Source of the DNA: Candidatus Hermodarchaeota archaeon
Lineage (GTDB): Archaea; Asgardarchaeota; Hermodarchaeia; Hermodarchaeales; Hermodarchaeaceae
DNA length: 17,877 nucleotides
Reading direction: 5' to 3'
NCBI GenBank assembly: GCA_016839365.1
Contig: JAEOUH010000081.1
Location: forward strand, 1-17,877
The notes beneath the pieces are model-generated. The model saw only the letters and a list, made by a program, of their open reading frames with translations. It searched no databases and was not told the origin of the DNA. Below, piece after piece: positions 3,526 to 14,809 of this stretch. Positions within the stretch are counted from its first letter, which is position 1, and every line of letters begins with the position of its first letter. The position numbers and the translations under genes were made by a program.

Positions 3526-3616
3526 GATTTCGACAGAGTAAAACTCGGTTCAGTCTACCAAGAGAAACGTTTAACCATGTAATCAGTAGCTATTAGACTA
3601 TAAGGAACGTGATATT

Positions 3617-3784
3617 TTGAGCTCTGATGACGTATGCCAAGCATGTGGAAAAATGGTGCAAACCCCAATTAAATGCTCCAACTGCAATGCCACCTTTCAC
3701 GTGACTTGCGTAAAGAAGAAGAAACGATATGAATGCCCGGTCTGCGGACACGAATCAGATAAACATGAACTGCGATTTGGATGA
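3617..3784 (+). CDS. Small C4HC3 zinc-finger protein (PHD/Nse1 RING-like), 55 aa
   Basis: Translated by hand from TTG 3617 to TGA 3782-3784: MSSDDVCQACGKMVQTPIKCSNCNATFHVTCVKKKKRYECPVCGHESDKHELRFG. Pattern C-x2-C-x9-C-x2-C-x4-H-x2-C-x8-C-x2-C. AAGGAACGTGA lies just upstream. It fills an otherwise empty gap. Confidence 0.85.
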   Translation: MSSDDVCQACGKMVQTPIKCSNCNATFHVTCVKKKKRYECPVCGHESDKHELRFG

Positions 3785-3809
3785 CATCATTTCGCTTTTT
3801 GTGTGTAAG

Positions 3810-4292
3810 TTAAAGCTGCTTTAGTTTCTCCGCAGCCTCCTTAACGAAATCTGGAGCATTCCTCATTTTCGCTGTAGACAAGACCATAGCCCGGTAATTC
3901 CCGAATTGGTCAAGGGCAATATCAAGCTTACCACAGACTTCAGTGACAAATCCTGCTTTGTCCTCTGACAATTCAGTTTCGATTACGACCTGCGCGAAAG
4001 ACTTCTGGCTAGGTGCAATCTTACGTTCATGCTGAGGTTCACCAAAACAGGCGGTTACTGCAGTAATTTGTTCATCAGTGGACACACGAATATGCACTTC
4101 GACTTTCATTGTTCCTCGATCTGTGGTACTCGTCACCAGTTGAGCCGAGAAGGATCGATCATCCGTCCGTGCACTCAACCCGCCACCCATATCAGCTTCT
4201 TGGGGAACAATATCAAGTCTGTCGCAAATACATTTGAATGCCCTTTGAGCTGGTGGTACAGTTGGAAATTCATAACTAAGCTCTTTGTGCAT
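3810..4292 (-). CDS. Hypothetical soluble protein (~160 aa)
   Basis: Non-overlapping ORF with protein-like composition. AAAGGTG upstream favours ATG 4292 over GTG 4301. A TATA-like TTTTATTAA lies on the minus strand at 4349-4341. Confidence 0.75.
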   Translation of the reverse strand: MHKELSYEFPTVPPAQRAFKCICDRLDIVPQEADMGGGLSARTDDRSFSAQLVTSTTDRGTMKVEVHIRVSTDEQITAVTACFGEPQHERKIAPSQKSFAQVVIETELSEDKAGFVTEVCGKLDIALDQFGNYRAMVLSTAKMRNAPDFVKEAAEKLKQL

Positions 4293-4460: not shown

Positions 4461-5813
4461 ATGAGAATGAATGGTACCCACCGATTCATGGGAGACTTGC
4501 CAATGCGGCGAACAATTCTTACACGATTAATATTACTCCTCTTTATCGGGGTCATGGTTCTGCCTTTTTTGTCACCTGCCTCCGATACCTCGCTAAACAT
4601 CACTGCCCAACCTCCGGCTTTAGACAAACCCGCGTCGATTTATTCTGGCTCAGCGACTGTTACCTGTTACTCCTCGCCTGATTCAAGTTTCGACATCATA
4701 ATAGACCTTTTGCAAAACACCGAGAACGAAATGCAGATCATGGTATATGCACTCACCAACTGGTTTCTCATCAAAGAAATCCATGATGCCCTTGCCCGAA
4801 ATGGCACCATGGAAATCACCATCATTGTTTCTTGGAAATGGGCTTCACCGGCTGAGCGTTCACTCACAAAAGGCGCTTTCTACAACCTTTCACAAAATGC
4901 AGCCTTTGGATCCAATCTGCAACTCTACTTTTCCGAAGACACTTACCTTGAATTCACACATGCAAAATTCATGATTTTCGATCAAGAAGCACTCGTTGTG
5001 CAAAGTGCGAACTGGGCAAAATCCGGTGTTCCGCCTGCCAACAGCGCTGGGAACCGTGAATGGGGTGTAGTCATTGAACAACCTGATGTTATCGATTACT
5101 TCTATGATACCTTCATACATGACCTAACCCTTGATAATGTTGAACCCTACGTTCCTGTTATTGCTGATGAAGAAGAATTCACTGATAACATCTCGACAGG
5201 TTCCTATCCAGCACCATTCACTAGCCAAACGTTTTCTGGCTCCATGAGCATCCAATGTGTCCTCTCACCAGACAACGATATTCCAACGATTAAAGCCCTC
5301 ATCGACTCTGCCACCTCAGCCCTAAAGGTCCAACAGATGTATTCAAAGCTCGATTGGGATGGAGCTCCAAATCAATTCAATGATGCCATCATTGCAGCCG
5401 CTGCACGAGGAGTAGAATGCCAAGTCATTCTCGACAACCAGAGTTCCGGGATGCAAGAAGTAGCCAATCTGTTAATGGCTAACGGCGTGGATGTCCGATT
5501 CAGCAATCAAAACTATTTTGGTTGGACACACAACAAAGGCGTCATCGTTGATGGACAAAAGGTCCTCATCTCCAGCATCAACTGGAGTTATGAATCCACC
5601 CACGAAAACCGAGAAGCGGGAGTTATCATCACTCACTCAGGTGTCGCTAACTATTTCACCCAGATTTTCAACTGGGATTGGAACGCTGGCACAACCCTCA
5701 CGGCCCCCCCGCCCCCAGAACCAATTCCCTTAGAATACATCATCATCGGGGTCGTTGTAGTAGTCATCCTAGCGATTGGAGGGTGGGTTTACCAACGATA
5801 CCTGAAGAAGTAA
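4461..5813 (+). CDS. Secreted, C-terminally membrane-anchored phospholipase D-superfamily protein with two HKD motifs (nuclease or phospholipase)
   Basis: HAKFMIFD...QSANW...NREWGV and HNKGVIVD...SSINW...NREAGV. Signal-like MRRTILTRLILLLFIGVMVLPFLSPAS, so the true start may be ATG 4503. Ends in a PPPPEP linker, TM helix and RYLKK tail. Confidence 0.9.
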   Translation: MRMNGTHRFMGDLPMRRTILTRLILLLFIGVMVLPFLSPASDTSLNITAQPPALDKPASIYSGSATVTCYSSPDSSFDIIIDLLQNTENEMQIMVYALTNWFLIKEIHDALARNGTMEITIIVSWKWASPAERSLTKGAFYNLSQNAAFGSNLQLYFSEDTYLEFTHAKFMIFDQEALVVQSANWAKSGVPPANSAGNREWGVVIEQPDVIDYFYDTFIHDLTLDNVEPYVPVIADEEEFTDNISTGSYPAPFTSQTFSGSMSIQCVLSPDNDIPTIKALIDSATSALKVQQMYSKLDWDGAPNQFNDAIIAAAARGVECQVILDNQSSGMQEVANLLMANGVDVRFSNQNYFGWTHNKGVIVDGQKVLISSINWSYESTHENREAGVIITHSGVANYFTQIFNWDWNAGTTLTAPPPPEPIPLEYIIIGVVVVVILAIGGWVYQRYLKK

Positions 5814-6381: not shown

Positions 6382-9336
6382 GTGGTTAAGGTGCCAAAGC
6401 TTCAAAAGGTGATCCTGGTTAGTCATACACATTGGGATCGCGAATGGTATCTTCCCTTTGAGGATTTCCGATGGTTATTGGTTAAGACTATAGATCAGCT
6501 CATCGATCTCATGGAAAACAATCAAAAATATCATTACTTCAACCTAGATGGCCAGACCATTATCCTCGAGGACTATCTAGAACTTCGACCAGAAAACCGC
6601 CAACGATTGCAACAACTCATTACTCAAAATCGCATACAAATCGGTCCATGGTATGTTCTCGCTGACGAATTCTTGGTTAGCGGTGAATCACTGATTCGCA
6701 ATCTACTCTATGGACATCAAACTGGTGGTCAGTTTGGGAAAGTGATGTCCATAGGATATGTCCCTGATTCCTTCGGACACATCGCCCAACTCCCCCAGAT
6801 TCTTAACGGCTTTAATATTACAACCAGTATTTGGTGGCGAGGATTAGAAGACAACGGAAAGACTCTACCGACAGAACTCCGTTGGCGCTCGCCTGATGGC
6901 TCAGAAGTGCTCCTAGTTCATTTACGGACGAGTTATTCAACCGCTGCAAACCTTCCTGATTCTGTTGATTCAGCATTGGCTCAAATCCTTATGCCGCTGA
7001 ATGTTCTGTCTCTCCGCGGAACCACTTCCGCTGCCCTTCTAATGAATGGAAGTGACCACCTCCCCCCTCAACCACACCTTCCCACACTCATTCATGCACT
7101 AAATCAACGTCTCCAATCTAAGGACATTTTGAGAGGAAAGCGAGTTTCACAATTACTTAGTGAGTTCGGGAAAAGCCCCATAGACAAAGAAGTAACTGGT
7201 CTTAATGAACTCAGTCCATTCATTGACCAATTGTTTACCGACTTCCTCAAAGAACTAGACGGGGTCACTTTCCATCACGGTACACTACAGGATTATATCG
7301 ATATCATCCGAAACGAAGCTTCCCTCGTAGGATTGCCTATTATTGAAGGAGAACAACACGCCAGCAAATACATCCCCGTTCTTCCTGGTGTATTTTCGTC
7401 TCGTCTCTATCTTAAACAAAAAAATTTCACATGCCAACAACTGCTCGAACGATGGGTTGAGCCCTTTAGCACTATCGCTTGGTGGCTTGGGGCTCCCTAC
7501 CCTACGGTTCCTCTCCAATACGCTTGGAAACTTCTCCTCCAAAACCACCCCCATGATTCTATTTGCGGTTGCAGTGTAGACGAAACCCATGCTGATATGG
7601 AGCGACGGTTCGCAGGAGTTCACCAAATCGGAAATCAGTTACTCGGCGAAGCCATTTCCTACATCAACCAACAAACCACCTCCAAACCTCCTTCAACACT
7701 TCCAAATCAACCTGTTGCGGCGTTCCGTGTGTTCAACCCCCATCCTTGGAACGCAACGGATATTGTCCGCATTCTTCTTCACCTACCAAACCGTAAAGAT
7801 GATCTAGCACACTTCACCCTCTATAATTCAGCTGGAGAAGCTGTTCCCTTCCAATGTCAGAAAGCAACAGCTCTCGATCCCACCATACAAAGGTCAATTG
7901 ATATCCATACCCTTCCTGAAATCTACTCAGGTGAACCACACGTCCCAGATCTTACACGCTATCTTTTGGTTACACTTCCTGTGCAGGAAATTCCTGGGTA
8001 CGGACACGCCTCCTTCTATTTAGCTCCCAAAACCTCTGAGGACACAATCCCATCAACTCCCACCCTCTCAATTACACAAAAGGATGAAGTATATTCTATT
8101 GAAAATCCATTCATTCGACTACGTATATCTACCCGGAACGGATCAATCAATCTGTATCATAAACCTACACACAAAGAGTACGACAATCTTCACGTTTTCG
8201 AAGACACAGGTGATATCGGGGACGAATACAATTACTGTCCCCCCGCTCAGGATTCCTGTGTCACCACGCAAGATATACCAAACACAAGGATAAGCATACT
8301 TGAAGCGGGGCCGATCACAAGTTCAATCCTGATTTCAACAAGGATTAAAGTTCCAAAAGAAATCCTTGCCAACCGCCGACGCCGAAGCTCCCAGATAGTG
8401 ACAATACCCATTCAAAGTCTAATCACAGTATCTGCCTATTCTCCACGAGTCGATATTCAAACCACAATAATCAATATGGCAAAGGACCATCGACTCAGAA
8501 TTCTTTTTCCAACAAACCTAAACGCTACCACTGTATGGGGAGACACTCCGTTACATGTCACGGAACGACCAAATAAAGCCGCGCCTCAAACATGGGAGGC
8601 TCAACTCTACCCCATGATAATGGACTACTACCTTACCTCAATTCTCAAGGCACCAAATATCAAAGGCAAACCCCTTGGTTGGTTCGAAGACTCCACAACC
8701 ACACACGCCCTCCAAAGCTTCGTAGATGTAAATGATGGCAAGGAAGGTTTGCTCATCGCTACAAGAGGACTCCCTGAATATGAGCTGATTGATGACGAAA
8801 AACGTACTATTGCCTTGACTCTCCTTCGATCAGTTGGATGGCTTTCCCGGGCTGACTTAACGACCCGCCGTGGAAACGCAGGTCCAGAACTCGAAACGCC
8901 AGGGGCACAATGCCTGGGACACCAAGTCATGCAATATTCCATATTACCTCACCCCGAGTCGTGGAGAAACAAGTTGACACTACGACAGGCTCAACTCTTT
9001 GTTACTCCAATGAGAGCCATCCAACTTTCCAATACAAATAATGGCCACCTCCTACCTGATCAAAGCTTTCTTTCAATCGATAATCCCCACTGCACCTTTA
9101 GCTGCTTGAAGAAATCTGAAAGCACCGATTCAACCATTCTCCGCGTATTCGAAATTAGCGGAGCTGCAGGAATGGCAAGAATCCAAACCCACTTGGAGGT
9201 TACAAAGGTTACTCCCGTCAACCTTAATGAAGAACCAACTAGCGATACTCCACTAACAATCTCAAATACATCTCATGTTGAAATGAGTATTGCTCCCTTT
9301 CAGATTCGTACTCTCCAGTTTAAAATAAAGAAATAG
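6382..9336 (+). CDS. GH38 alpha-mannosidase (MngB/mannosylglycerate hydrolase-like), cytoplasmic
   Basis: SHTHWDREWY (Zn ligands), LDGQ, GPWYVLADEF, nucleophile motif PDSFGH, NGSDH, QNHPHDSICGCS, LTLLRSVGWLSR. No signal peptide. The start may be GTG 6391. Confidence 0.95.
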   Translation: MVKVPKLQKVILVSHTHWDREWYLPFEDFRWLLVKTIDQLIDLMENNQKYHYFNLDGQTIILEDYLELRPENRQRLQQLITQNRIQIGPWYVLADEFLVSGESLIRNLLYGHQTGGQFGKVMSIGYVPDSFGHIAQLPQILNGFNITTSIWWRGLEDNGKTLPTELRWRSPDGSEVLLVHLRTSYSTAANLPDSVDSALAQILMPLNVLSLRGTTSAALLMNGSDHLPPQPHLPTLIHALNQRLQSKDILRGKRVSQLLSEFGKSPIDKEVTGLNELSPFIDQLFTDFLKELDGVTFHHGTLQDYIDIIRNEASLVGLPIIEGEQHASKYIPVLPGVFSSRLYLKQKNFTCQQLLERWVEPFSTIAWWLGAPYPTVPLQYAWKLLLQNHPHDSICGCSVDETHADMERRFAGVHQIGNQLLGEAISYINQQTTSKPPSTLPNQPVAAFRVFNPHPWNATDIVRILLHLPNRKDDLAHFTLYNSAGEAVPFQCQKATALDPTIQRSIDIHTLPEIYSGEPHVPDLTRYLLVTLPVQEIPGYGHASFYLAPKTSEDTIPSTPTLSITQKDEVYSIENPFIRLRISTRNGSINLYHKPTHKEYDNLHVFEDTGDIGDEYNYCPPAQDSCVTTQDIPNTRISILEAGPITSSILISTRIKVPKEILANRRRRSSQIVTIPIQSLITVSAYSPRVDIQTTIINMAKDHRLRILFPTNLNATTVWGDTPLHVTERPNKAAPQTWEAQLYPMIMDYYLTSILKAPNIKGKPLGWFEDSTTTHALQSFVDVNDGKEGLLIATRGLPEYELIDDEKRTIALTLLRSVGWLSRADLTTRRGNAGPELETPGAQCLGHQVMQYSILPHPESWRNKLTLRQAQLFVTPMRAIQLSNTNNGHLLPDQSFLSIDNPHCTFSCLKKSESTDSTILRVFEISGAAGMARIQTHLEVTKVTPVNLNEEPTSDTPLTISNTSHVEMSIAPFQIRTLQFKIKK

Positions 9337-9521
9337 TACAAAGCGATCTTTTGAATATAATTTTGGAATTTCAATGTGAGTGTAATCAAAATTTCATGTA
9401 AAAGAGATGGAAAAACCTTCCAAGTGAATCAGGCTTGAAGGTCGAAATAGCTGTGTAACAACCTCCTAGACCTCTTTCTAAGCACTAATAATTCTCTTCT
9501 GATATGAAACCGAAATGATTT

Positions 9522-9815
9522 ATGGGACGATTTTCATTTATAAGTTGGAGGTGGATGGCAATCGAGCCCAGATCAGACAAAATTTATTCTCCTGTTCAAA
9601 GGAGACCAAACCGTTGGCTGTTCCTCATTCTACTTTTTTGTGGAGTGTCTTGTTTGCTAATTGGGTTTACACTCTACACACTAGCTCCCTACCTAGCTTG
9701 GCAAATATTCCTTCCCGTAGATCTCCTCAAATGGATAGGCGCATTTGCATTCTACATTGGGCTCATCATCTTTTTCATTCTCGTTCTGGCCCATGTGGGA
9801 TTGCTTCACTCCTAA
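9522..9815 (+). CDS. Small membrane protein with 2 predicted TM helices
   Basis: Two long hydrophobic stretches (WLFLILLFCGVSCLLIGFTLY and WIGAFAFYIGLIIFFILVLAHVGLL). The start is uncertain (9522 or 9555). Confidence 0.65.
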   Translation: MGRFSFISWRWMAIEPRSDKIYSPVQRRPNRWLFLILLFCGVSCLLIGFTLYTLAPYLAWQIFLPVDLLKWIGAFAFYIGLIIFFILVLAHVGLLHS

Positions 9816-9978
9816 TACCCGATAACTAAAAATTTGGTGAATATAGAAAAAGAGACAACCAAGGGAATGTACTAAAACGATTAGAATTCAGCAAGCTTCG
9901 GAAGGCAATCCAAACAGTCGTACGACATCTCGATCACAAAGGAGATTTAAAGGATCAATTCCTTCTCGGTACGTATTT

Positions 9979-10725
9979 GTGTTAGGGTTCGTTGGGTCCC
10001 TCGTAAGTGGTATAGTCTTATTTTACAGTTCAATGTTTTTTTCGATAACGAATCATGATGTCTTCACGCTGCTTCTCTTCTCTGCAATACTCTTCTTCAT
10101 CGTTGCTGGGGCCTTTGGTGTCGTATCTGTTGTAGCGTGGGGTGTCGAAATTTCTGGAGATCGGTCAAGACTACGGGCACAACGAGCTAGGCATCGTCTG
10201 GACACTCGACGTCGCTACCGAACACTGAAAGGACAACGAAGTAATGCTGAATCATCAGAACCAACCCCCTCGATTCCTGATGACGGCGAAGCTACTGAAT
10301 ACGATGATGAGGAGGATGCTCGCGATCAGGACCTGCCAAAATGGCTTATACCACTTTTGAAGAATCGTCCAGCTGCCCTTGCCATTCACGATGATCTAAT
10401 CGTCACTTCGCAGTCACGGGATGAGATTGAATCAAAGTTCCAGTCACGCATCGATGATCTTGATTCTGAGAAAGTCATCATCCGCTATGAAGAGTCTGAG
10501 ACCGTTGATGTAGATGTATCATCGAAATTAGTTCACACAGAAGGGCTAACAGGTGCACCTTCTGCCCGCCTTTCTGAGACAGAAATCGAGAGAGAAGCCA
10601 TCCTCAATCTCCTTGGTGCCCTTGAACTTCAACACTCCGAAAACCGAATCACTTCGAGTTTCTATAAACGCAAGGGGAGGCAACTACGTAAACGGTTAGC
10701 TGAGATTACACGTAAGTCATCATAG
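9979..10725 (+). CDS. Membrane protein: 2 TM helices, basic then acidic linker, small alpha/beta domain, C-terminal SHOCT-like helical hairpin
   Basis: Hydrophobic N-terminus. The tail LLGALELQHSENRITSSFYKRKGRQLRKRL resembles L-x-x-L...G-x-I-S-x-x-x-Y-type helical hairpins. The frame is open back to 9847. Confidence 0.75.
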   Translation: MLGFVGSLVSGIVLFYSSMFFSITNHDVFTLLLFSAILFFIVAGAFGVVSVVAWGVEISGDRSRLRAQRARHRLDTRRRYRTLKGQRSNAESSEPTPSIPDDGEATEYDDEEDARDQDLPKWLIPLLKNRPAALAIHDDLIVTSQSRDEIESKFQSRIDDLDSEKVIIRYEESETVDVDVSSKLVHTEGLTGAPSARLSETEIEREAILNLLGALELQHSENRITSSFYKRKGRQLRKRLAEITRKSS

Positions 10726-10811
10726 TGTTTAGCCCAAGTTTGATCCTTCCAACCAAAAATCTTGTCTCTGTTTTGAAAAGCTGTAGTCAATTCCTCATGA
10801 CAGATTAGTGG

Positions 10812-11846
10812 GTGGTTCCTTTCTTGTTTTCTATATTGATAAGACCAAAGTATTTTGAATCCGTAATAATAAACTTGAAGAGGGTTCGTACAGATAAGTA
10901 CATCGTGAACCTATCCCTACAAGGCCAATTTCACCGGTATTTTCTCTTGTTATTACTATTTGGTTCTCTTTATTATCTGGCAGGTATTGCTCCTAGCCCA
11001 TTAGGTTCTTTCCTCCAATCCAACGGGAATCCTCGGGAAGGCTGGGCGGTTTTGATGGAGATGAATTTTTATTCCTCTGGCAATGATTTGGGCACCGGGT
11101 ATGCCGACACGCAGAAATGGAATTTAACCCTTCAGACATTGGGTTGGCAAACTCACCATATTCTCATCCACCAAGGCGAAATTACTCGGCAAACTGGGGA
11201 AGCTGCACTTCACTTTCTAGCAATGAATGCAGATGCGAATGATGTGGTTTTGTTCTTCGTTTTTGCACACGGTAACTATCTTCTCACGGATGTTCACTGG
11301 AATACTTGGTTCCCACAACAATGGATGAGCCTTGAAAGTCACGAAAAACTCTTTATTGTTGCCTCGTGTACATCTGAACTATTGCTTCAACCCCTCTATG
11401 ATGATCCCTCATCCCATATTCACATCGCATCGACGGAGGGGGACGAATACGCCTGGGCTGGACTGCCCGAAGAAGGGCTACCCATAATCGGTGAAATCTT
11501 CACTCATTTCTTCACCAACGCGTTAATCAATGGATCCGCCGATTCTAATACAGATGGCGAAGTAACCGTCGAAGAAGCCTTTGAGTTTGCCACTCCACTC
11601 AGCCGTAACTACATCACATCAGTGGTTTTTCCAGCATTCCCAGACTTTGCTGAGATGTGTGACAACACGGCACCTCATCCTGTGTTGGATGACAATTATC
11701 CTGACAGTTTCTCCCTCCAGGTTGATTTAGGGGATCCTCCTCTCATGCCCAGTGGGTTTCCTCCTGAGTTGGGCTTCCTCCTTGCTGGCATCATTGTTGT
11801 AATTTCAGTATTCGCCTTTGCATTCTACATGCGGCAAAGACGATAA
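10812..11846 (+). CDS. Membrane-anchored caspase-like peptidase (clan CD, C14/C13-like)
   Basis: DVVLFFVFAHG (His at 11268-11270) and KLFIVASC (Cys at 11367-11369) form the dyad. FTHFFTNAL..ADSNTDGEVTVEEAF is typical of prokaryotic caspase homologues. N-terminal hydrophobic segment and C-terminal TM plus RQRR. The true start is probably GTG 10905. Confidence 0.8.
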   Translation: MVPFLFSILIRPKYFESVIINLKRVRTDKYIVNLSLQGQFHRYFLLLLLFGSLYYLAGIAPSPLGSFLQSNGNPREGWAVLMEMNFYSSGNDLGTGYADTQKWNLTLQTLGWQTHHILIHQGEITRQTGEAALHFLAMNADANDVVLFFVFAHGNYLLTDVHWNTWFPQQWMSLESHEKLFIVASCTSELLLQPLYDDPSSHIHIASTEGDEYAWAGLPEEGLPIIGEIFTHFFTNALINGSADSNTDGEVTVEEAFEFATPLSRNYITSVVFPAFPDFAEMCDNTAPHPVLDDNYPDSFSLQVDLGDPPLMPSGFPPELGFLLAGIIVVISVFAFAFYMRQRR

Positions 11847-11861
11847 TCCGAAAGTCGAATA

Positions 11862-12653
11862 CTAGAGTTGGCTACGAATTCGACTGGGCACAGGATCTAA
11901 TATAATCTGATTCGTACGACGGGCCTGGCGGATAAACTCAAGTGGTGTCTCACTTCGTAAAAGAAACCGGAGTGTTTCATCGTCGATGAAGACGCCCAAG
12001 GTGGGCGAACCTATTTTTTGTCTAACGAGTTCAAGCAGTTTCGGATAATCTGTTTGCCAATCAGAAATCGTAATACTAGCTGGCTCTAATGCTTGTGTGG
12101 AAGTAATTCGATGGATTTGGCCATTTACCCCTTCGATGATCAGACTTGCCCAGATGGAGTTCTCCTCAAAGACTGTGAGGAGACAAAGATAGTTTGTGGG
12201 CAACGCATCCAATACACTGCGCGTCCGTTCGAAGAGTTTGAACAGACCCTTATTCCAGAATTCCTGAGGCCAAATGTAAAACCGTCTCCCAAATTCTTCT
12301 TCCAGACTGGTTTGGGCTAATTCCAGGTATTGGAAGATGTCCATTTCTGGAGTAAAAGCCCCCTGCATCTTCGCAATCAAGTAGACAACGAGCCCCTGCT
12401 CAATCATAAAGACTGCATCAACATCTTCTCTTTGTTGCATCTGTTGCACAAGGTTGGATGGTGTGGAAAAGGGACCCGTGAGGTCTGGTCTGATACCTTG
12501 AAGGGAATGATAGGCATGGATGATTTCAGCCCCTTTATATAGCAGGAAAAGTGCTCCACGCTCGCTCAAAAATTGAGGTAAGCTGGATAGTAAATTGAAC
12601 CAATGAGCAGTCGTCATATTAGTAAACTCATAATTTTTATCGAGACGTCTCAT
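11862..12653 (-). CDS. Hypothetical soluble protein translationally coupled to the glycosidase
   Basis: ATGA overlap with the upstream stop (12653-12650), GAGGTGG upstream, 263 aa of globular composition. Confidence 0.85.
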   Translation of the reverse strand: MRRLDKNYEFTNMTTAHWFNLLSSLPQFLSERGALFLLYKGAEIIHAYHSLQGIRPDLTGPFSTPSNLVQQMQQREDVDAVFMIEQGLVVYLIAKMQGAFTPEMDIFQYLELAQTSLEEEFGRRFYIWPQEFWNKGLFKLFERTRSVLDALPTNYLCLLTVFEENSIWASLIIEGVNGQIHRITSTQALEPASITISDWQTDYPKLLELVRQKIGSPTLGVFIDDETLRFLLRSETPLEFIRQARRTNQIILDPVPSRIRSQL

Positions 12654-14809
12654 CGAACCACCTCAAATATCCGTAATTCATGGGCTTGTAGTTCGATTTC
12701 CTGAGGGCCTTTATCAGGTAACTGTTCGCCGGTCCAAAGATCTCGAATTATCAAGCGTTTAGCTACATTCAGGGTAACTGATTGCGGTTGGTTAGTAGCA
12801 TTTACTTGGAATATCACAGTGGGGGCACGAACGCCCCAATGAATTTCATCAACAGATGGATTCTGCGCATCTCCGATAGCACTCAGATTTAGGTGCTTTA
12901 GGGAGTTGGTGATAACGGTTTCTGCTTCCAATGCCTCATCGCGATTCAAGGTTGGAGGCAAAGTGATTCCAAGATAGACGATGGTCCCTTTACTTACCTG
13001 AGTGACTTCTCCAGCAGGACGGTTTCCGGCTTGAATTCTATTGTCCACAAGGGTAAATGGATCGTGAAGCCCCACTAATGGTCGGCGGGTCGATGTAGGC
13101 TTAATACCCGAACGATCAATTATCACAGAGCACCCACGCATGTCCGTACCCAAATACGGCAACTCCGGACCAAGAATGGCTGTACCACCTCGTTCGACAA
13201 AATCCATTATCTTGGACTGCAACTCATCGGACATAAAATCGAAGCTCGGAATAATCAGGGCTTGATATCGGTTAAGCGATGGCAAGTCCATGTTGCTATC
13301 ACCGATAGCAAAGGGAATTTTGGAAAGAGTCAATCCCCAATAGTAGGCATCCCATAGGGCAGGGTAGGCTTTCTGAATCGTTTCTGTATAACTAAAGGTT
13401 CGGTTACTCAATAGCACATCATCTGGAATTCCCAACATATGAGTCAGCCAAGTGGAGTTTGTGCACATTCGGTGAAGCCGCTCATACTCGAAGTTGCGCA
13501 GCAACAATATGGGGACGTTACGCTGCAAGGTATGGAATTCAACTGTATTTAGCACCTCAAGTAATCGCTTCAGGAATGCTGAGTTGGCATCATCAGTTTC
13601 CCCCATCTCCGATATGGGACTTCCAAGCCAACGATCTCGTCCCACCAGCATATGAGCATTAAATCCCCGAAAACCATACATCAGCGCCACAACCATCGCA
13701 AACTGCTGATCTTCGGGCTTCAATCCTGGGCCCCAGGGCCAGATGCCAATTCCACTTTCAGAAATGTAAGGCAATCGGCTTACAGCACTAAGGTATAACG
13801 CGCCACGTCGAATTCTGTCATACTGTGACTGCCCGAGATAGAGCCCCACGCCTTGAATATCCAACTCCTTTTCTGTTCGCCCAACGGACAAAGGCAAAGA
13901 GGGGTAGGTGGATCGAGTATTATGCAGAGTAAGGACTCCACGAACCCCGCGTGACCAAAGCAAGCTAGTCAATACGCTAAGTGCTAATCCAACATAGTAC
14001 TCTTGGAATTCCATCCAATCTAGATACCGGGGGAGGGCTTCATGCTCAGTGGCTGCCAGGGCCCGTGGTGGCTCGATTTCGGTGAACCGACTGTACCGGG
14101 TACGATAGGCTCGGTTTAATCCTCCAATCGATGGATATTTACTATTTAGGTATTCATGATACCACCGCAATGCATGAGTTGAATAATCTGCGCTGAATGG
14201 GCCATTTAAAAAGATGCGTGGTAAATCGTTGTCAATGTGAACTCCGATAATTGGACCTCCAGGTGCGAGCTGTCGAGTGATGATAGGACAGACCGCATCA
14301 AAGAACTTTGATACCTCATCGTAGAACTTTTCACTAGCATAACTTGGCATAGGAAATGGATTCGGTATCGCAGGAATTATCACACGTGTCCCGTAGGAGC
14401 TTACAGCGTGAATCTCAGGATCATAGAGTAAGCGTTTCGGAAAACCATAGTGGTTGAGTTCAGCGTCAAGACAAGGTCCAAGGCGTACAATTGCGTAGAG
14501 TCCTTTATCACGGCACAGGGTAAGAAACGCTTCAATGTCGCGTTGTTTATCTGTCTTACCAAAATCAAATAGGTCGCTAGCTACTTCATGGACATTCCAT
14601 GGAATCGCTACAGAGACAATTCTGAAGCCTAGACCAGCTATCCGAGCAAGAATGGTCTCCCATCTTTTGGATGGAATTCGCCAATAATCGGCTGAGCCGC
14701 TATATAGGGGGAATTGCTCTCCCTCAACTTTGACGCAATATCCCTCAAGTTTCAGGGCTGGCTGCATGACTGCGCTTCGATCGTCGGCGCCTATACCGTT
14801 CTGCTCCAT
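12650..14809 (-). CDS. GH35/GH42-type (clan GH-A) beta-galactosidase-like protein with trimerisation domain; atypical catalytic motifs
   Basis: SGSADYWR, IPWNVHE, VRLGPCLDAE..GFP, GGPIIGVHIDND, ISESG, GH42-like YL..KY.SI..LNRAY and YQALIIP...IMDFVERGG. GGAGGT upstream supports ATG 14809 over GTG 14833. Confidence 0.88.
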   Translation of the reverse strand: MEQNGIGADDRSAVMQPALKLEGYCVKVEGEQFPLYSGSADYWRIPSKRWETILARIAGLGFRIVSVAIPWNVHEVASDLFDFGKTDKQRDIEAFLTLCRDKGLYAIVRLGPCLDAELNHYGFPKRLLYDPEIHAVSSYGTRVIIPAIPNPFPMPSYASEKFYDEVSKFFDAVCPIITRQLAPGGPIIGVHIDNDLPRIFLNGPFSADYSTHALRWYHEYLNSKYPSIGGLNRAYRTRYSRFTEIEPPRALAATEHEALPRYLDWMEFQEYYVGLALSVLTSLLWSRGVRGVLTLHNTRSTYPSLPLSVGRTEKELDIQGVGLYLGQSQYDRIRRGALYLSAVSRLPYISESGIGIWPWGPGLKPEDQQFAMVVALMYGFRGFNAHMLVGRDRWLGSPISEMGETDDANSAFLKRLLEVLNTVEFHTLQRNVPILLLRNFEYERLHRMCTNSTWLTHMLGIPDDVLLSNRTFSYTETIQKAYPALWDAYYWGLTLSKIPFAIGDSNMDLPSLNRYQALIIPSFDFMSDELQSKIMDFVERGGTAILGPELPYLGTDMRGCSVIIDRSGIKPTSTRRPLVGLHDPFTLVDNRIQAGNRPAGEVTQVSKGTIVYLGITLPPTLNRDEALEAETVITNSLKHLNLSAIGDAQNPSVDEIHWGVRAPTVIFQVNATNQPQSVTLNVAKRLIIRDLWTGEQLPDKGPQEIELQAHELRIFEVVR

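Follow-up and report, generated by a model that had tools for sequence, protein, structure and literature searches.

The locus and the finger gene

The window analysed here is the whole 17,877-nucleotide stretch of contig JAEOUH010000081.1 (assembly GCA_016839365.1) from Candidatus Hermodarchaeota archaeon, and the subject is the gene at 3617-3784 on its plus strand, which encodes a free-standing zinc-finger protein of 55 residues, called the finger below. It is a real gene, under purifying selection, and its product is predicted to have a RING-like fold. The gene and the parts of its product are as follows:

3617..3784, plus strand: coding sequence of the 55-residue zinc-finger protein, with a TTG start at 3617-3619 and a TGA stop at 3782-3784
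3635..3745, plus strand: zinc-ligand core, C7 to C43, with ligand codons at 3635, 3644, 3674, 3683, 3698 (His), 3707, 3734, and 3743
3713..3727, plus strand: polybasic patch K33-K34-K35-K36-R37, at the place where RING E3s carry the E2-docking helix and its Trp
3764..3781, plus strand: conserved C-terminal tail H-E-L-R-F-G, at the end of the protein

Regarding the reading frame, the initial annotation had proposed a 55-residue open reading frame with a TTG start, and the frame from TTG to TGA is confirmed, both in the window and by its orthologues. An in-frame TAG lies upstream at 3587-3589 and the frame is open from 3590, so that the TTG at 3617 is the first usable start; initiation at the in-frame ATG (M13) would cost the protein its first Cys pair. 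The window contains one instance of a relaxed C4HC3 pattern and 300 shuffles contain none, which argues that the motif is not there by chance. The gene also shows that micro-genes with a TTG start escape routine annotation.

As for the relatives, a six-frame search recovered the finger frame intact and free of stops: within the same genus 13 of 14 genomes have it (64-87 % identity), as do all four of the sister genus (49 % identity); a third, metagenomic lineage also carries an orthologue, of the type of the database protein P0006, as seen in a metagenome scan with that protein. The position of the start codon is shared by the orthologues: it is TTG in eight and ATG in six members of the genus, and ATG in the sister genus. 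Over the usable pairs, dN/dS has a median of 0.083, with dN near 0.1 and dS saturated in 50 of 78 pairs, and the variable sites number 23, 14, and 52 at codon positions 1, 2, and 3, respectively, over 54 codons. Of the checks named by the initial annotation, those for conserved homologues, an undisrupted frame, and dN/dS thus come out in favour of the gene. Among 400 genomes of the phylum, the free-standing finger was found in this family only, in 17 of its 18 genomes.

The one genus genome in which the finger gene was not found, G004, is 77 % complete and broken into 390 contigs; the neighbouring gene is missing there too, so the locus is probably unassembled. Two other readings of the locus were rejected: coding in another frame or on the opposite strand meets stops in most orthologues, and variation peaks at the third positions of the plus-strand frame; as for a known RNA, no Rfam family scored above threshold anywhere in the window.

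Zinc ligands, lysine patch, and C-terminal tail

The ligands of the finger are C7, C10, C20, C23, H28, C31, C40, and C43, and the spacing first read from the DNA, C-x2-C-x9-C-x2-C-x4-H-x2-C-x8-C-x2-C, is exact in the translation. All eight are invariant in the 18 orthologues and in the database proteins P0005 and P0006. The loop between ligands 6 and 7 counts 8 residues in the genus (9 in one member); members of the sister genus and P0005 have about 14. The KKKKR patch noticed at the outset corresponds to K33-K36 and R37, and the last Cys pair reads C-P-V-C, both being present in the translation; the Tyr placed two residues ahead of ligand 7 is Tyr38, a position that holds Tyr or Phe in all members. 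Among the orthologues, K35 and K36 are invariant and K34 is nearly so.

The C-terminal tail follows the family pattern [HYF]-x-[LM]-[RT]-[FYVM]-G-COOH, with G55 invariant and E51 and R53 conserved in at least 90 % of the members; P0006 ends in the same tail, and P0005 carries one extra residue past the Gly. In the AlphaFold2 model described below, residues 51-55 have a predicted local distance difference test (pLDDT) score below 50, and because the tail is both conserved and predicted to be flexible, it may serve as a short, flexible docking motif. Candidates for the surface that vary little or not at all are K12, T16, K19, K34-K36, H45, E51, R53, and G55; in addition, an acidic residue (D5 in the window protein, Glu or Asp in the family) stands two positions ahead of ligand 1 in 17 of 18 members.

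Fold class

None of the Pfam models reaches its gathering score with the window protein, and the finger cannot therefore be filed as a PHD or as an Nse1-type domain. C1_2 comes closest, with 25.7 bits against 26; zf-RING-like scores 22.0 against 26.6, C1_1 21.5 against 26.5, PHD 20.9 against 24, zf-RING_2 18.3 against 27.3, and zf-C3HC4_2 16.1 against 27, the RING models overall lying 8-13 bits under threshold. C1_2, zf-RING-like, C1_1, and PHD are each matched by all 18 orthologues at E-values from 1e-4 to 1e-6, and the matches to the C1/DC1 models (PF00130, PF03107) cover only the C-terminal two-thirds of those models. Sequence searches of the PDB returned the synoviolin RING-H2, the PHF21A PHD, and other PHD, RING, and C1 fingers, at E-values from 1e-4 to 1e-2, together with spurious matches to C2H2 fingers and rubredoxin knuckles.

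The AlphaFold2 model, built from the 18-sequence alignment, has a mean pLDDT of 76.5, and two structural comparisons give it a RING-like three-dimensional fold. With Foldseek the E-values are weak, and the best template modelling (TM) scores, 0.55-0.63, belong to the Nse1 RING-like domain, the TRIM2 RING, and a chain of the TFIIH complex. With VIA-align, run against 48,161 chains, the top 50 are nearly all RING or U-box domains (Z 3.6-5.4), with a few PHDs lower down; the best are the RNF213 RING (Z 5.4, 2.3 Å over 50 residues) and the Slx1 RING (Z 5.0, 2.1 Å over 52 residues). The spacing is not that of a canonical RING, C-x2-C-x(9-39)-C-x(1-3)-H-x(2-3)-C/H-x2-C-x(4-48)-C-x2-C: ligands 3 and 4 form C-x2-C followed by x4-H, instead of C-x-H-x2. 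In the predicted cross-brace, ligands 1, 2, 5, and 6 would hold one zinc ion and ligands 3, 4, 7, and 8 the other.

In the ESM Atlas, the finger lies nearest to a cluster labelled "RING-type domain" and to a small bacterial one in which Prok-RING_1 is present in part; the cluster of 62-residue proteins, of which 34 % carry Prok-RING_1, scores 0.92. Like the finger, Prok-RING_1 (PF14446) proteins are small, prokaryotic, and stand-alone, and they include bacterial proteins annotated as "Phorbol-ester/DAG-type domain"; 12 of the 18 orthologues match the model at E <= 0.01 (best 1.7e-4), the window protein not being among them. On the other hand, all of these matches lie below the cut-off of 29.1 bits, the likeness in the Atlas comes without alignment support, and the members are bacterial.

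Taken with the model, these results place the finger among the binuclear treble-clef proteins of the RING/PHD/C1 class, outside every curated sub-family. The two-zinc finger of PHD/RING class proposed by the initial annotation is thus supported, by the weak but consistent sub-threshold Pfam matches of the 18 orthologues and by the RING and U-box neighbours of the model. Its further statement that the spacing marks PHD and Nse1-type domains holds as a likeness to both, but membership of either fails at the gathering scores; and the description of such folds as mainly eukaryotic has to be qualified, as homologous fingers are common inside larger Asgard proteins and the RING of the host's own ubiquitin operon shares the C-x2-C-x4-H spacing. 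The Prok-RING families, the small RING finger protein (srfp), and the relationships among binuclear treble-clefs were already established (PMC4506424). RING-like fingers of Asgard archaea and other prokaryotes are therefore known, and what is new here is a lineage-specific, free-standing variant with an altered E2 face.

A homologous finger in larger Lokiarchaeial proteins

Searching the phylum gave repeated matches, at E-values of about 1e-6, inside proteins of about 440 residues from another family of the phylum. These carry, in order, a vWA-like region at the N-terminus, an extra C-x2-C, a central finger, an acidic linker, and a zinc ribbon at the C-terminus. The central finger is spaced C-x2-C-x9-C-x2-C-x4-H-x2-C-x18-C-x2-C, and comparison of the two finger alignments (A1 and A4) with hhalign gave a probability of 97.6 %, with an E-value of 2.8e-12 over 42 columns. 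The larger family has at least 405 members, mostly labelled Lokiarchaeota/Promethearchaeota; most are annotated as hypothetical, while the names "RING finger protein" and "VWA domain-containing protein" are given to some. In the reciprocal direction, a 439-residue query against 19 Hermodarchaeial genomes matched only the 55-residue open reading frame, and the full-length form with vWA-like region, finger, and zinc ribbon was not found in those genomes with that query. Given the profile match and this reciprocal result, the 55-residue protein is a free-standing homologue of the Lokiarchaeial central finger.

This is the closest demonstrable homologue: the x9 and x4 spacings are equal, and both share the motif [DE][DE]-h-C-x-h-C-G...P-[IL]-x-C-x2-C-N-x2-F-H-x2-C-V...[FY]-x-C-P-x-C. 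The Lokiarchaeial finger differs in being embedded in a multidomain protein, in its 18-residue last loop, and in the extra upstream C-x2-C; furthermore, it keeps Ile/Val and Tyr at two hydrophobic positions, whereas the Hermodarchaeial one has the Lys patch. Examples of the larger family are L051:1196-2512 (minus strand), L052:910-2265 (plus strand), and L053:1251-2576 (plus strand), and their combination of a vWA-like region with zinc fingers recalls TFIIH p44/p34. Two other Asgard proteins with fingers were recorded: L054:1357-2520 (minus strand) has a true VWA_2 domain and two fingers, the second of which passes C1_1 (28.9 bits against 26.5), and in L056:555-1490 (plus strand) a PCI domain is joined to a RING-H2, which at 39 bits lies above the zf-RING_2 threshold and matches the zf-rbx1 and ANAPC11 models too.

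The ubiquitin operon of the host and the E2-docking positions

The ubiquitin/ESCRT locus of the host, complete and of the kind typical for Asgard archaea, lies on another contig (L044, G000:C71:30000-48000, at about 6500-12900). Its genes code for E1 (ThiF with a ubiquitin-like tail; L044 7319-8404), E2 (8359-8820), ubiquitin (9019-9255), and a 131-residue RING (P0027; 9269-9664), these four on the minus strand, and further for a 139-residue protein, a UEV/Vps23-like protein, Vps28, and Vps36/EAP30. In the RING of this operon, P0027, the centre is C-x2-C-x4-H-x2-H, which is PHD/Nse1-like, yet it keeps the Val, Trp, Pro, and Arg needed for E2 docking; hence the C-x2-C-x4-H spacing is by itself no argument against a RING role. 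The positions compare as follows:

ligand 1 + 2 (the position before ligand 2): Val in the operon RING; Ala9 in 14/14 finger proteins of the genus, Val in those of its sister genus
ligand 6 + 4: Trp in the operon RING; invariant Lys35 in the finger
after ligand 7: Pro in the operon RING; Pro41 in 12/14 finger proteins of the genus
after ligand 8 (linchpin): Arg in the operon RING; Gly44 in 17/18 finger proteins

RING E3s have Ile, Val, or Leu before ligand 2, Trp or another hydrophobic residue at ligand 6 + 4, and Arg or Lys as the linchpin; three of the four positions that engage E2 or E2~ubiquitin are accordingly not of RING type in the finger. In the small RING protein of Caldiarchaeum, ubiquitylation was lost with I30Q and impaired with W58A or R69A (PMC5654768); I30, W58, and R69 correspond to ligand 1 + 2, ligand 6 + 4, and the position after ligand 8.

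The finger and the srfp proteins of ubiquitin operons (Caldiarchaeum and Asgard archaea; PMC5654768) are all small archaeal fingers of cross-brace type, as predicted for the one described here, and P0027, from the same genome, also has the spacing C-x2-C...C-x2-C-x4-H-x2-(H/C)...C-P-x-C. They differ in that srfp and P0027 are encoded within an operon of E1, E2, and ubiquitin and retain Val/Ile, Trp, and Arg, whereas the finger is unlinked and has Ala, Lys, and Gly. A direct relationship between the finger and P0027 was considered and set aside, since hhalign gave a non-significant probability of 3.4 %.

Proposed function and its alternatives

The function that we tentatively favour for the finger, as possible and somewhat short of probable, is that of a non-catalytic docking module, based on the RING-like predicted fold, the invariant Lys patch, the conserved tail, and the altered E2 face. 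The seven Cys and one His would bind two zinc ions, and the resulting scaffold would present the patch K34-K36, at the site of the E2-binding helix of RING domains, to an acidic surface of a partner, while the flexible, Gly-ended C-terminal tail would meet a second site. Such a mode would be like that of the atypical C4HC3 RINGs of Nse1, Slx1, and TFIIH subunits, which hold partners together; the RING-like domain of Nse1 and the RING of Slx1 mainly hold partner proteins.

The finger shares with Nse1 (PF08746) and Slx1 the order of the ligands and the C-x2-C-x4-H-x2-C centre, and among the orthologues the best E-value for zf-RING-like is 5e-6; Nse1 chains superpose on the model with TM 0.58-0.60 and a root-mean-square deviation of 2.5 Å, and the Slx1 RING does so with the Z-score given above. 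In contrast, the finger has neither the winged helix and N-terminal region of Nse1 nor the nuclease part of Slx1, and stands alone at 55 residues; its last loop is much shorter, the polybasic patch and conserved tail are its own, and no Smc5/6 or Slx4 context was seen at its locus.

Several points weigh against a docking role. The VIA-align Z-scores of 4-5 are modest, in keeping with a domain of only 55 residues, though the list is coherent, and sequence alone would also be compatible with a sequential, LIM-like pair of separate zinc sites in place of the predicted cross-brace. The Lys patch fits binding of nucleic acid or of acidic lipid equally with protein docking. After ligand 7, Pro is retained by most members, and Val stands at ligand 1 + 2 throughout the sister genus, so that residual contact with E2 is possible. 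As for a partner, the link to the neighbouring gene orf163 (described below) rests on gene order inside one family-level clade, and since the two genes are convergent they are not co-transcribed.

Two alternatives draw on the patch and on the fold, respectively. A small nucleic-acid-binding zinc protein, with the Lys patch and knuckles lying on DNA or RNA in the manner of archaeal zinc-finger micro-proteins or ribosome-associated ribbons, is a doubtful candidate: K34-K36, K12, and K19 are invariant or nearly so, the lowest Foldseek E-values belong to ribosome-bound archaeal zinc proteins (9znf_BV, 6e-3; 9fhl_C, 1.5e-2), weak sequence matches to the HVO_2753-like/PRK14890 family occur, and many archaeal C(P)XCG micro-proteins exist (PMC11241148, PMC10716476). 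The latter resemble the finger in having 55-65 residues and four Cys-pair knuckles, including C-P-x-C-G, in being archaeal, and in being often unannotated (PMC11241148), but the predicted fold is different, with TM scores of 0.33-0.43 (0.33-0.42 to ribosomal zinc ribbons) against 0.55-0.63 for RING domains, and the finger reaches 16 of the 61 bits required by the NCBIfam equivalog model PRK14890. Furthermore, the net charge is only about +3 by residue count, with the thiolate-zinc centres not yet counted, and the locus lies outside any ribosomal or RNA-processing neighbourhood. The second alternative, already raised by the initial annotation as a minimal RING-like E3 component, is a minimal RING-type E3 or E3 subunit recruiting the E2~ubiquitin of the host. 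The RING-like part of that claim stands, and the E3 part is weakened: the predicted fold class, the presence of E1, E2, and ubiquitin in the host, the unusual C-x2-C-x4-H spacing common to the operon RING, and the RING-H2-like proteins that are the nearest non-family matches of the profile (E about 1e-5) would all agree with it, but Ala9 and Lys35 replace the hydrophobic residue and Trp, Gly44 replaces the linchpin Arg/Lys, and equivalent changes disabled the Caldiarchaeum srfp (PMC5654768). For these reasons a canonical E3 role appears unlikely; in addition, 55 residues hold no substrate-binding region, the gene is unlinked to a ubiquitin operon that has its own RING, and the RING Pfam models fall short as detailed above.

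The other two alternatives follow from the PHD and C1 matches. A PHD-type reader of an unmodified basic N-terminal tail, such as that of the host histone, would account for a C4HC3 spacing that equals the PHD one up to ligand 6, for the hallmark [IL]-x-C-x2-C-x3-[FY]-H-x2-C-[VI] (compare the alignment with PHF21A/BHC80), which includes the F-H-x2-C-V core of PF00628, for the aromatic residue two positions before ligand 7, and for the acidic residue that, in 17 of 18 members, lies two places ahead of ligand 1 and recalls the E-D-x-C of H3K4me0 readers; moreover, the only clear histone of the genome starts with MPREKTTRIIPIAP, a short extension with Arg2, Lys4, and Thr6 placed as in H3. The PHD consensus is C-x2-C-x(8-21)-C-x2-C-x4-H-x2-C-x(12-46)-C-x2-C, and the usual loop between its ligands 6 and 7 anchors the peptide N-terminus; the 8-residue loop of the genus is too short for this. 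The PHD score is below gathering, with a best orthologue E-value of only 1.4e-4, Tyr or Phe stands where PHDs have Trp, the structural neighbours are RING and U-box domains with few PHDs lower in the list, the basic residues K12, K19, and K34-K36 would hardly suit a basic tail, and a histone-tail resemblance only 7 residues long may be due to chance. Such a reader is thus very unlikely, and slightly more unlikely still is its specific form, a minimal archaeal PHD whose acidic residues before ligand 1 and first beta-strand would bind the unmodified histone extension PREKTTR...; PHD and other reader domains are currently taken to be innovations of eukaryotes (bioRxiv 10.1101/2021.11.30.470311), and if this form were true the finger would be a free-standing chromatin-tail reader predating eukaryotes. 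Finally, a C1/FYVE-like membrane finger for acidic lipids, tied functionally to a nearby enzyme of phospholipase D (PLD) type, has only a slim chance. The best Pfam match is indeed C1_2, C1_1 is matched too, the polybasic patch is present, a PLD-like membrane protein is encoded two genes away in three lineages, and the related Asgard finger of L054 passes C1_1. The C1 consensus, H-x12-C-x2-C-x(13-14)-C-x2-C-x4-H-x2-C-x7-C, nevertheless begins with a His-x12 segment that is missing here, just 6 residues preceding the first Cys, and a C1-type lipid groove cannot form because the loop between ligands 2 and 3 has 9 residues in place of 13-14. The signature motifs of FYVE are absent as well, an order of genes seen inside a single family-level clade counts for little, and the PLD-like gene forms its own transcription unit.

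As for the significance of the finger, RING/PHD-class fingers are central to ubiquitin and chromatin signalling in eukaryotes, and Asgard archaea are searched for their forerunners; here, one Asgard class keeps a free-standing finger of 55 residues under strong selection, with a lysine patch replacing the E2-docking face. The gene therefore offers a compact, easily expressed model for studying what such fingers did before or beside ubiquitin ligation, and the practical gain will be modest until its partner is identified.

Some observations in the same genome touch on these comparisons. The only clear histone-fold gene lies at L057:1465-1713 (plus strand; G000:C43), and its product is extended at the N-terminus by MPREKTTRIIPIAP and at the C-terminus by the basic segment YKQWKKTRR. 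The best match of the genome to the PHD model, 19.9 bits and below the cut-off, is a 246-residue membrane protein at L059:1453-2193 (minus strand; G000:C75), with a zinc ribbon at its N-terminus and, at its C-terminus, a PHD-like finger that ends in W-T-C-P-N-C. Orthology of the finger to the HVO_2753/PRK14890 (COG2888) zinc ribbon was rejected on its bit score and low TM; a true member of that family is present at G000:C27:22893-23069, with 66.8 bits. A 93-residue protein with several Cys pairs, found genus-wide and encoded at L005:900-1181 (plus strand; G000:C73), gives a weak PRK14890-like match of 22.9 bits, and its gene adjoins a ribonucleotide-reductase-like gene fragment.

Neighbouring genes

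Two genes accompany the finger gene on its downstream side:

3810..4292, minus strand: orf163, 160 residues from the ATG at 4292, a convergent neighbour placed tail-to-tail with the finger gene
4461-5813, plus strand: PLD-like protein of 450 residues, with two PLDc_2 domains and both termini hydrophobic, encoded two genes away from the finger in each of the three lineages

The order in the genus is permease, finger (plus strand), orf163 (minus strand), and PLD-like gene (plus strand). In the sister genus a metallophosphoesterase gene takes the place of the permease upstream, and the finger, orf163, and PLD-like genes persist; the third lineage has permease, finger, orf163, and PLD-like gene. 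The convergent pair of finger and orf163 is thus constant in the genus, the sister genus, and the third metagenomic lineage, and orf163 is put forward, from gene order, as a candidate partner only. Its product has no sequence match in Pfam, NCBIfam, or the PDB and no usable match in the ESM Atlas. The model of it, with a pLDDT of 90, shows an alpha/beta sandwich (residues 1-94) followed by a helical half; the fold was discarded as a functional clue, the matches being to generic alpha/beta sandwiches (Z 6-8, residues 1-94), with a single one at Z 6.0 for the helical half.

Probable transcription and translation signals

Around the coding sequence, three further features can be listed:

3562..3575, plus strand: putative promoter block GAGAAACGTTTAAC, resembling a transcription factor B recognition element and TATA box (BRE/TATA), about 45 nucleotides upstream of the start codon
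3602..3607, plus strand: Shine-Dalgarno-like AAGGAA, 9-10 nucleotides ahead of the start
3790..3800, plus strand: T-rich stretch, TTT and then T5 at 3796-3800, directly after the stop

The 14 loci of the genus have in common the core GAAA[C/T]GTTTAA, within the block GAGAAACGTTTAA(C/T); the GAG that flanks it and the base that follows hardly vary, and the remaining intergenic DNA is unconserved. The sister genus has its own conserved block, GATTTTAAGC, ahead of the finger gene. The general BRE/TATA layout of archaea is the basis for reading the upstream block as a promoter, and, because that block is conserved, the finger gene probably forms a transcription unit of its own. As for translation, AGGA or GGA stands at an equal distance (about 10 nucleotides) in most orthologues of the genus, and AAGGAGAA precedes the ATG in the sister genus. 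Downstream, the T-rich stretch could be an oligo-T terminator of archaeal type, for which the evidence is weak: T-runs after the stop occur in the orthologues but do not align.

Database matches

No NCBIfam model names the 55-residue finger protein. Four clusters of the family, with 56-71 residues, came out of a full HMMER scan that covered 1.84 billion representative proteins: two correspond to the orthologues of L020 and L021, which start with ATG, the one of P0006 starts with Met, and that of P0005 is without its N-terminus. The next matches, beyond the family, are C2H2 arrays and RING-H2-like proteins, at E-values from 1e-8 to 1e-4.

A word-indexed search of 5.8 billion predicted proteins gave a single candidate, P0002, an 88-residue protein from a contig of 1053 bp in ENA, which would be a fusion of the finger (residues 1-45) with a rubredoxin. 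With so few predicted proteins of the family, it is plausible that the open reading frame was absent from the ORF track, as the initial annotation stated. The last knuckle of the finger is nearly identical to the first knuckle of rubredoxin, and the junction in P0002 is a shared word, KKYKCTVCG; as the halves are, in addition, separate loci in 19 of 19 genomes of the family, the fusion was rejected, and P0002 is probably an assembly chimera.

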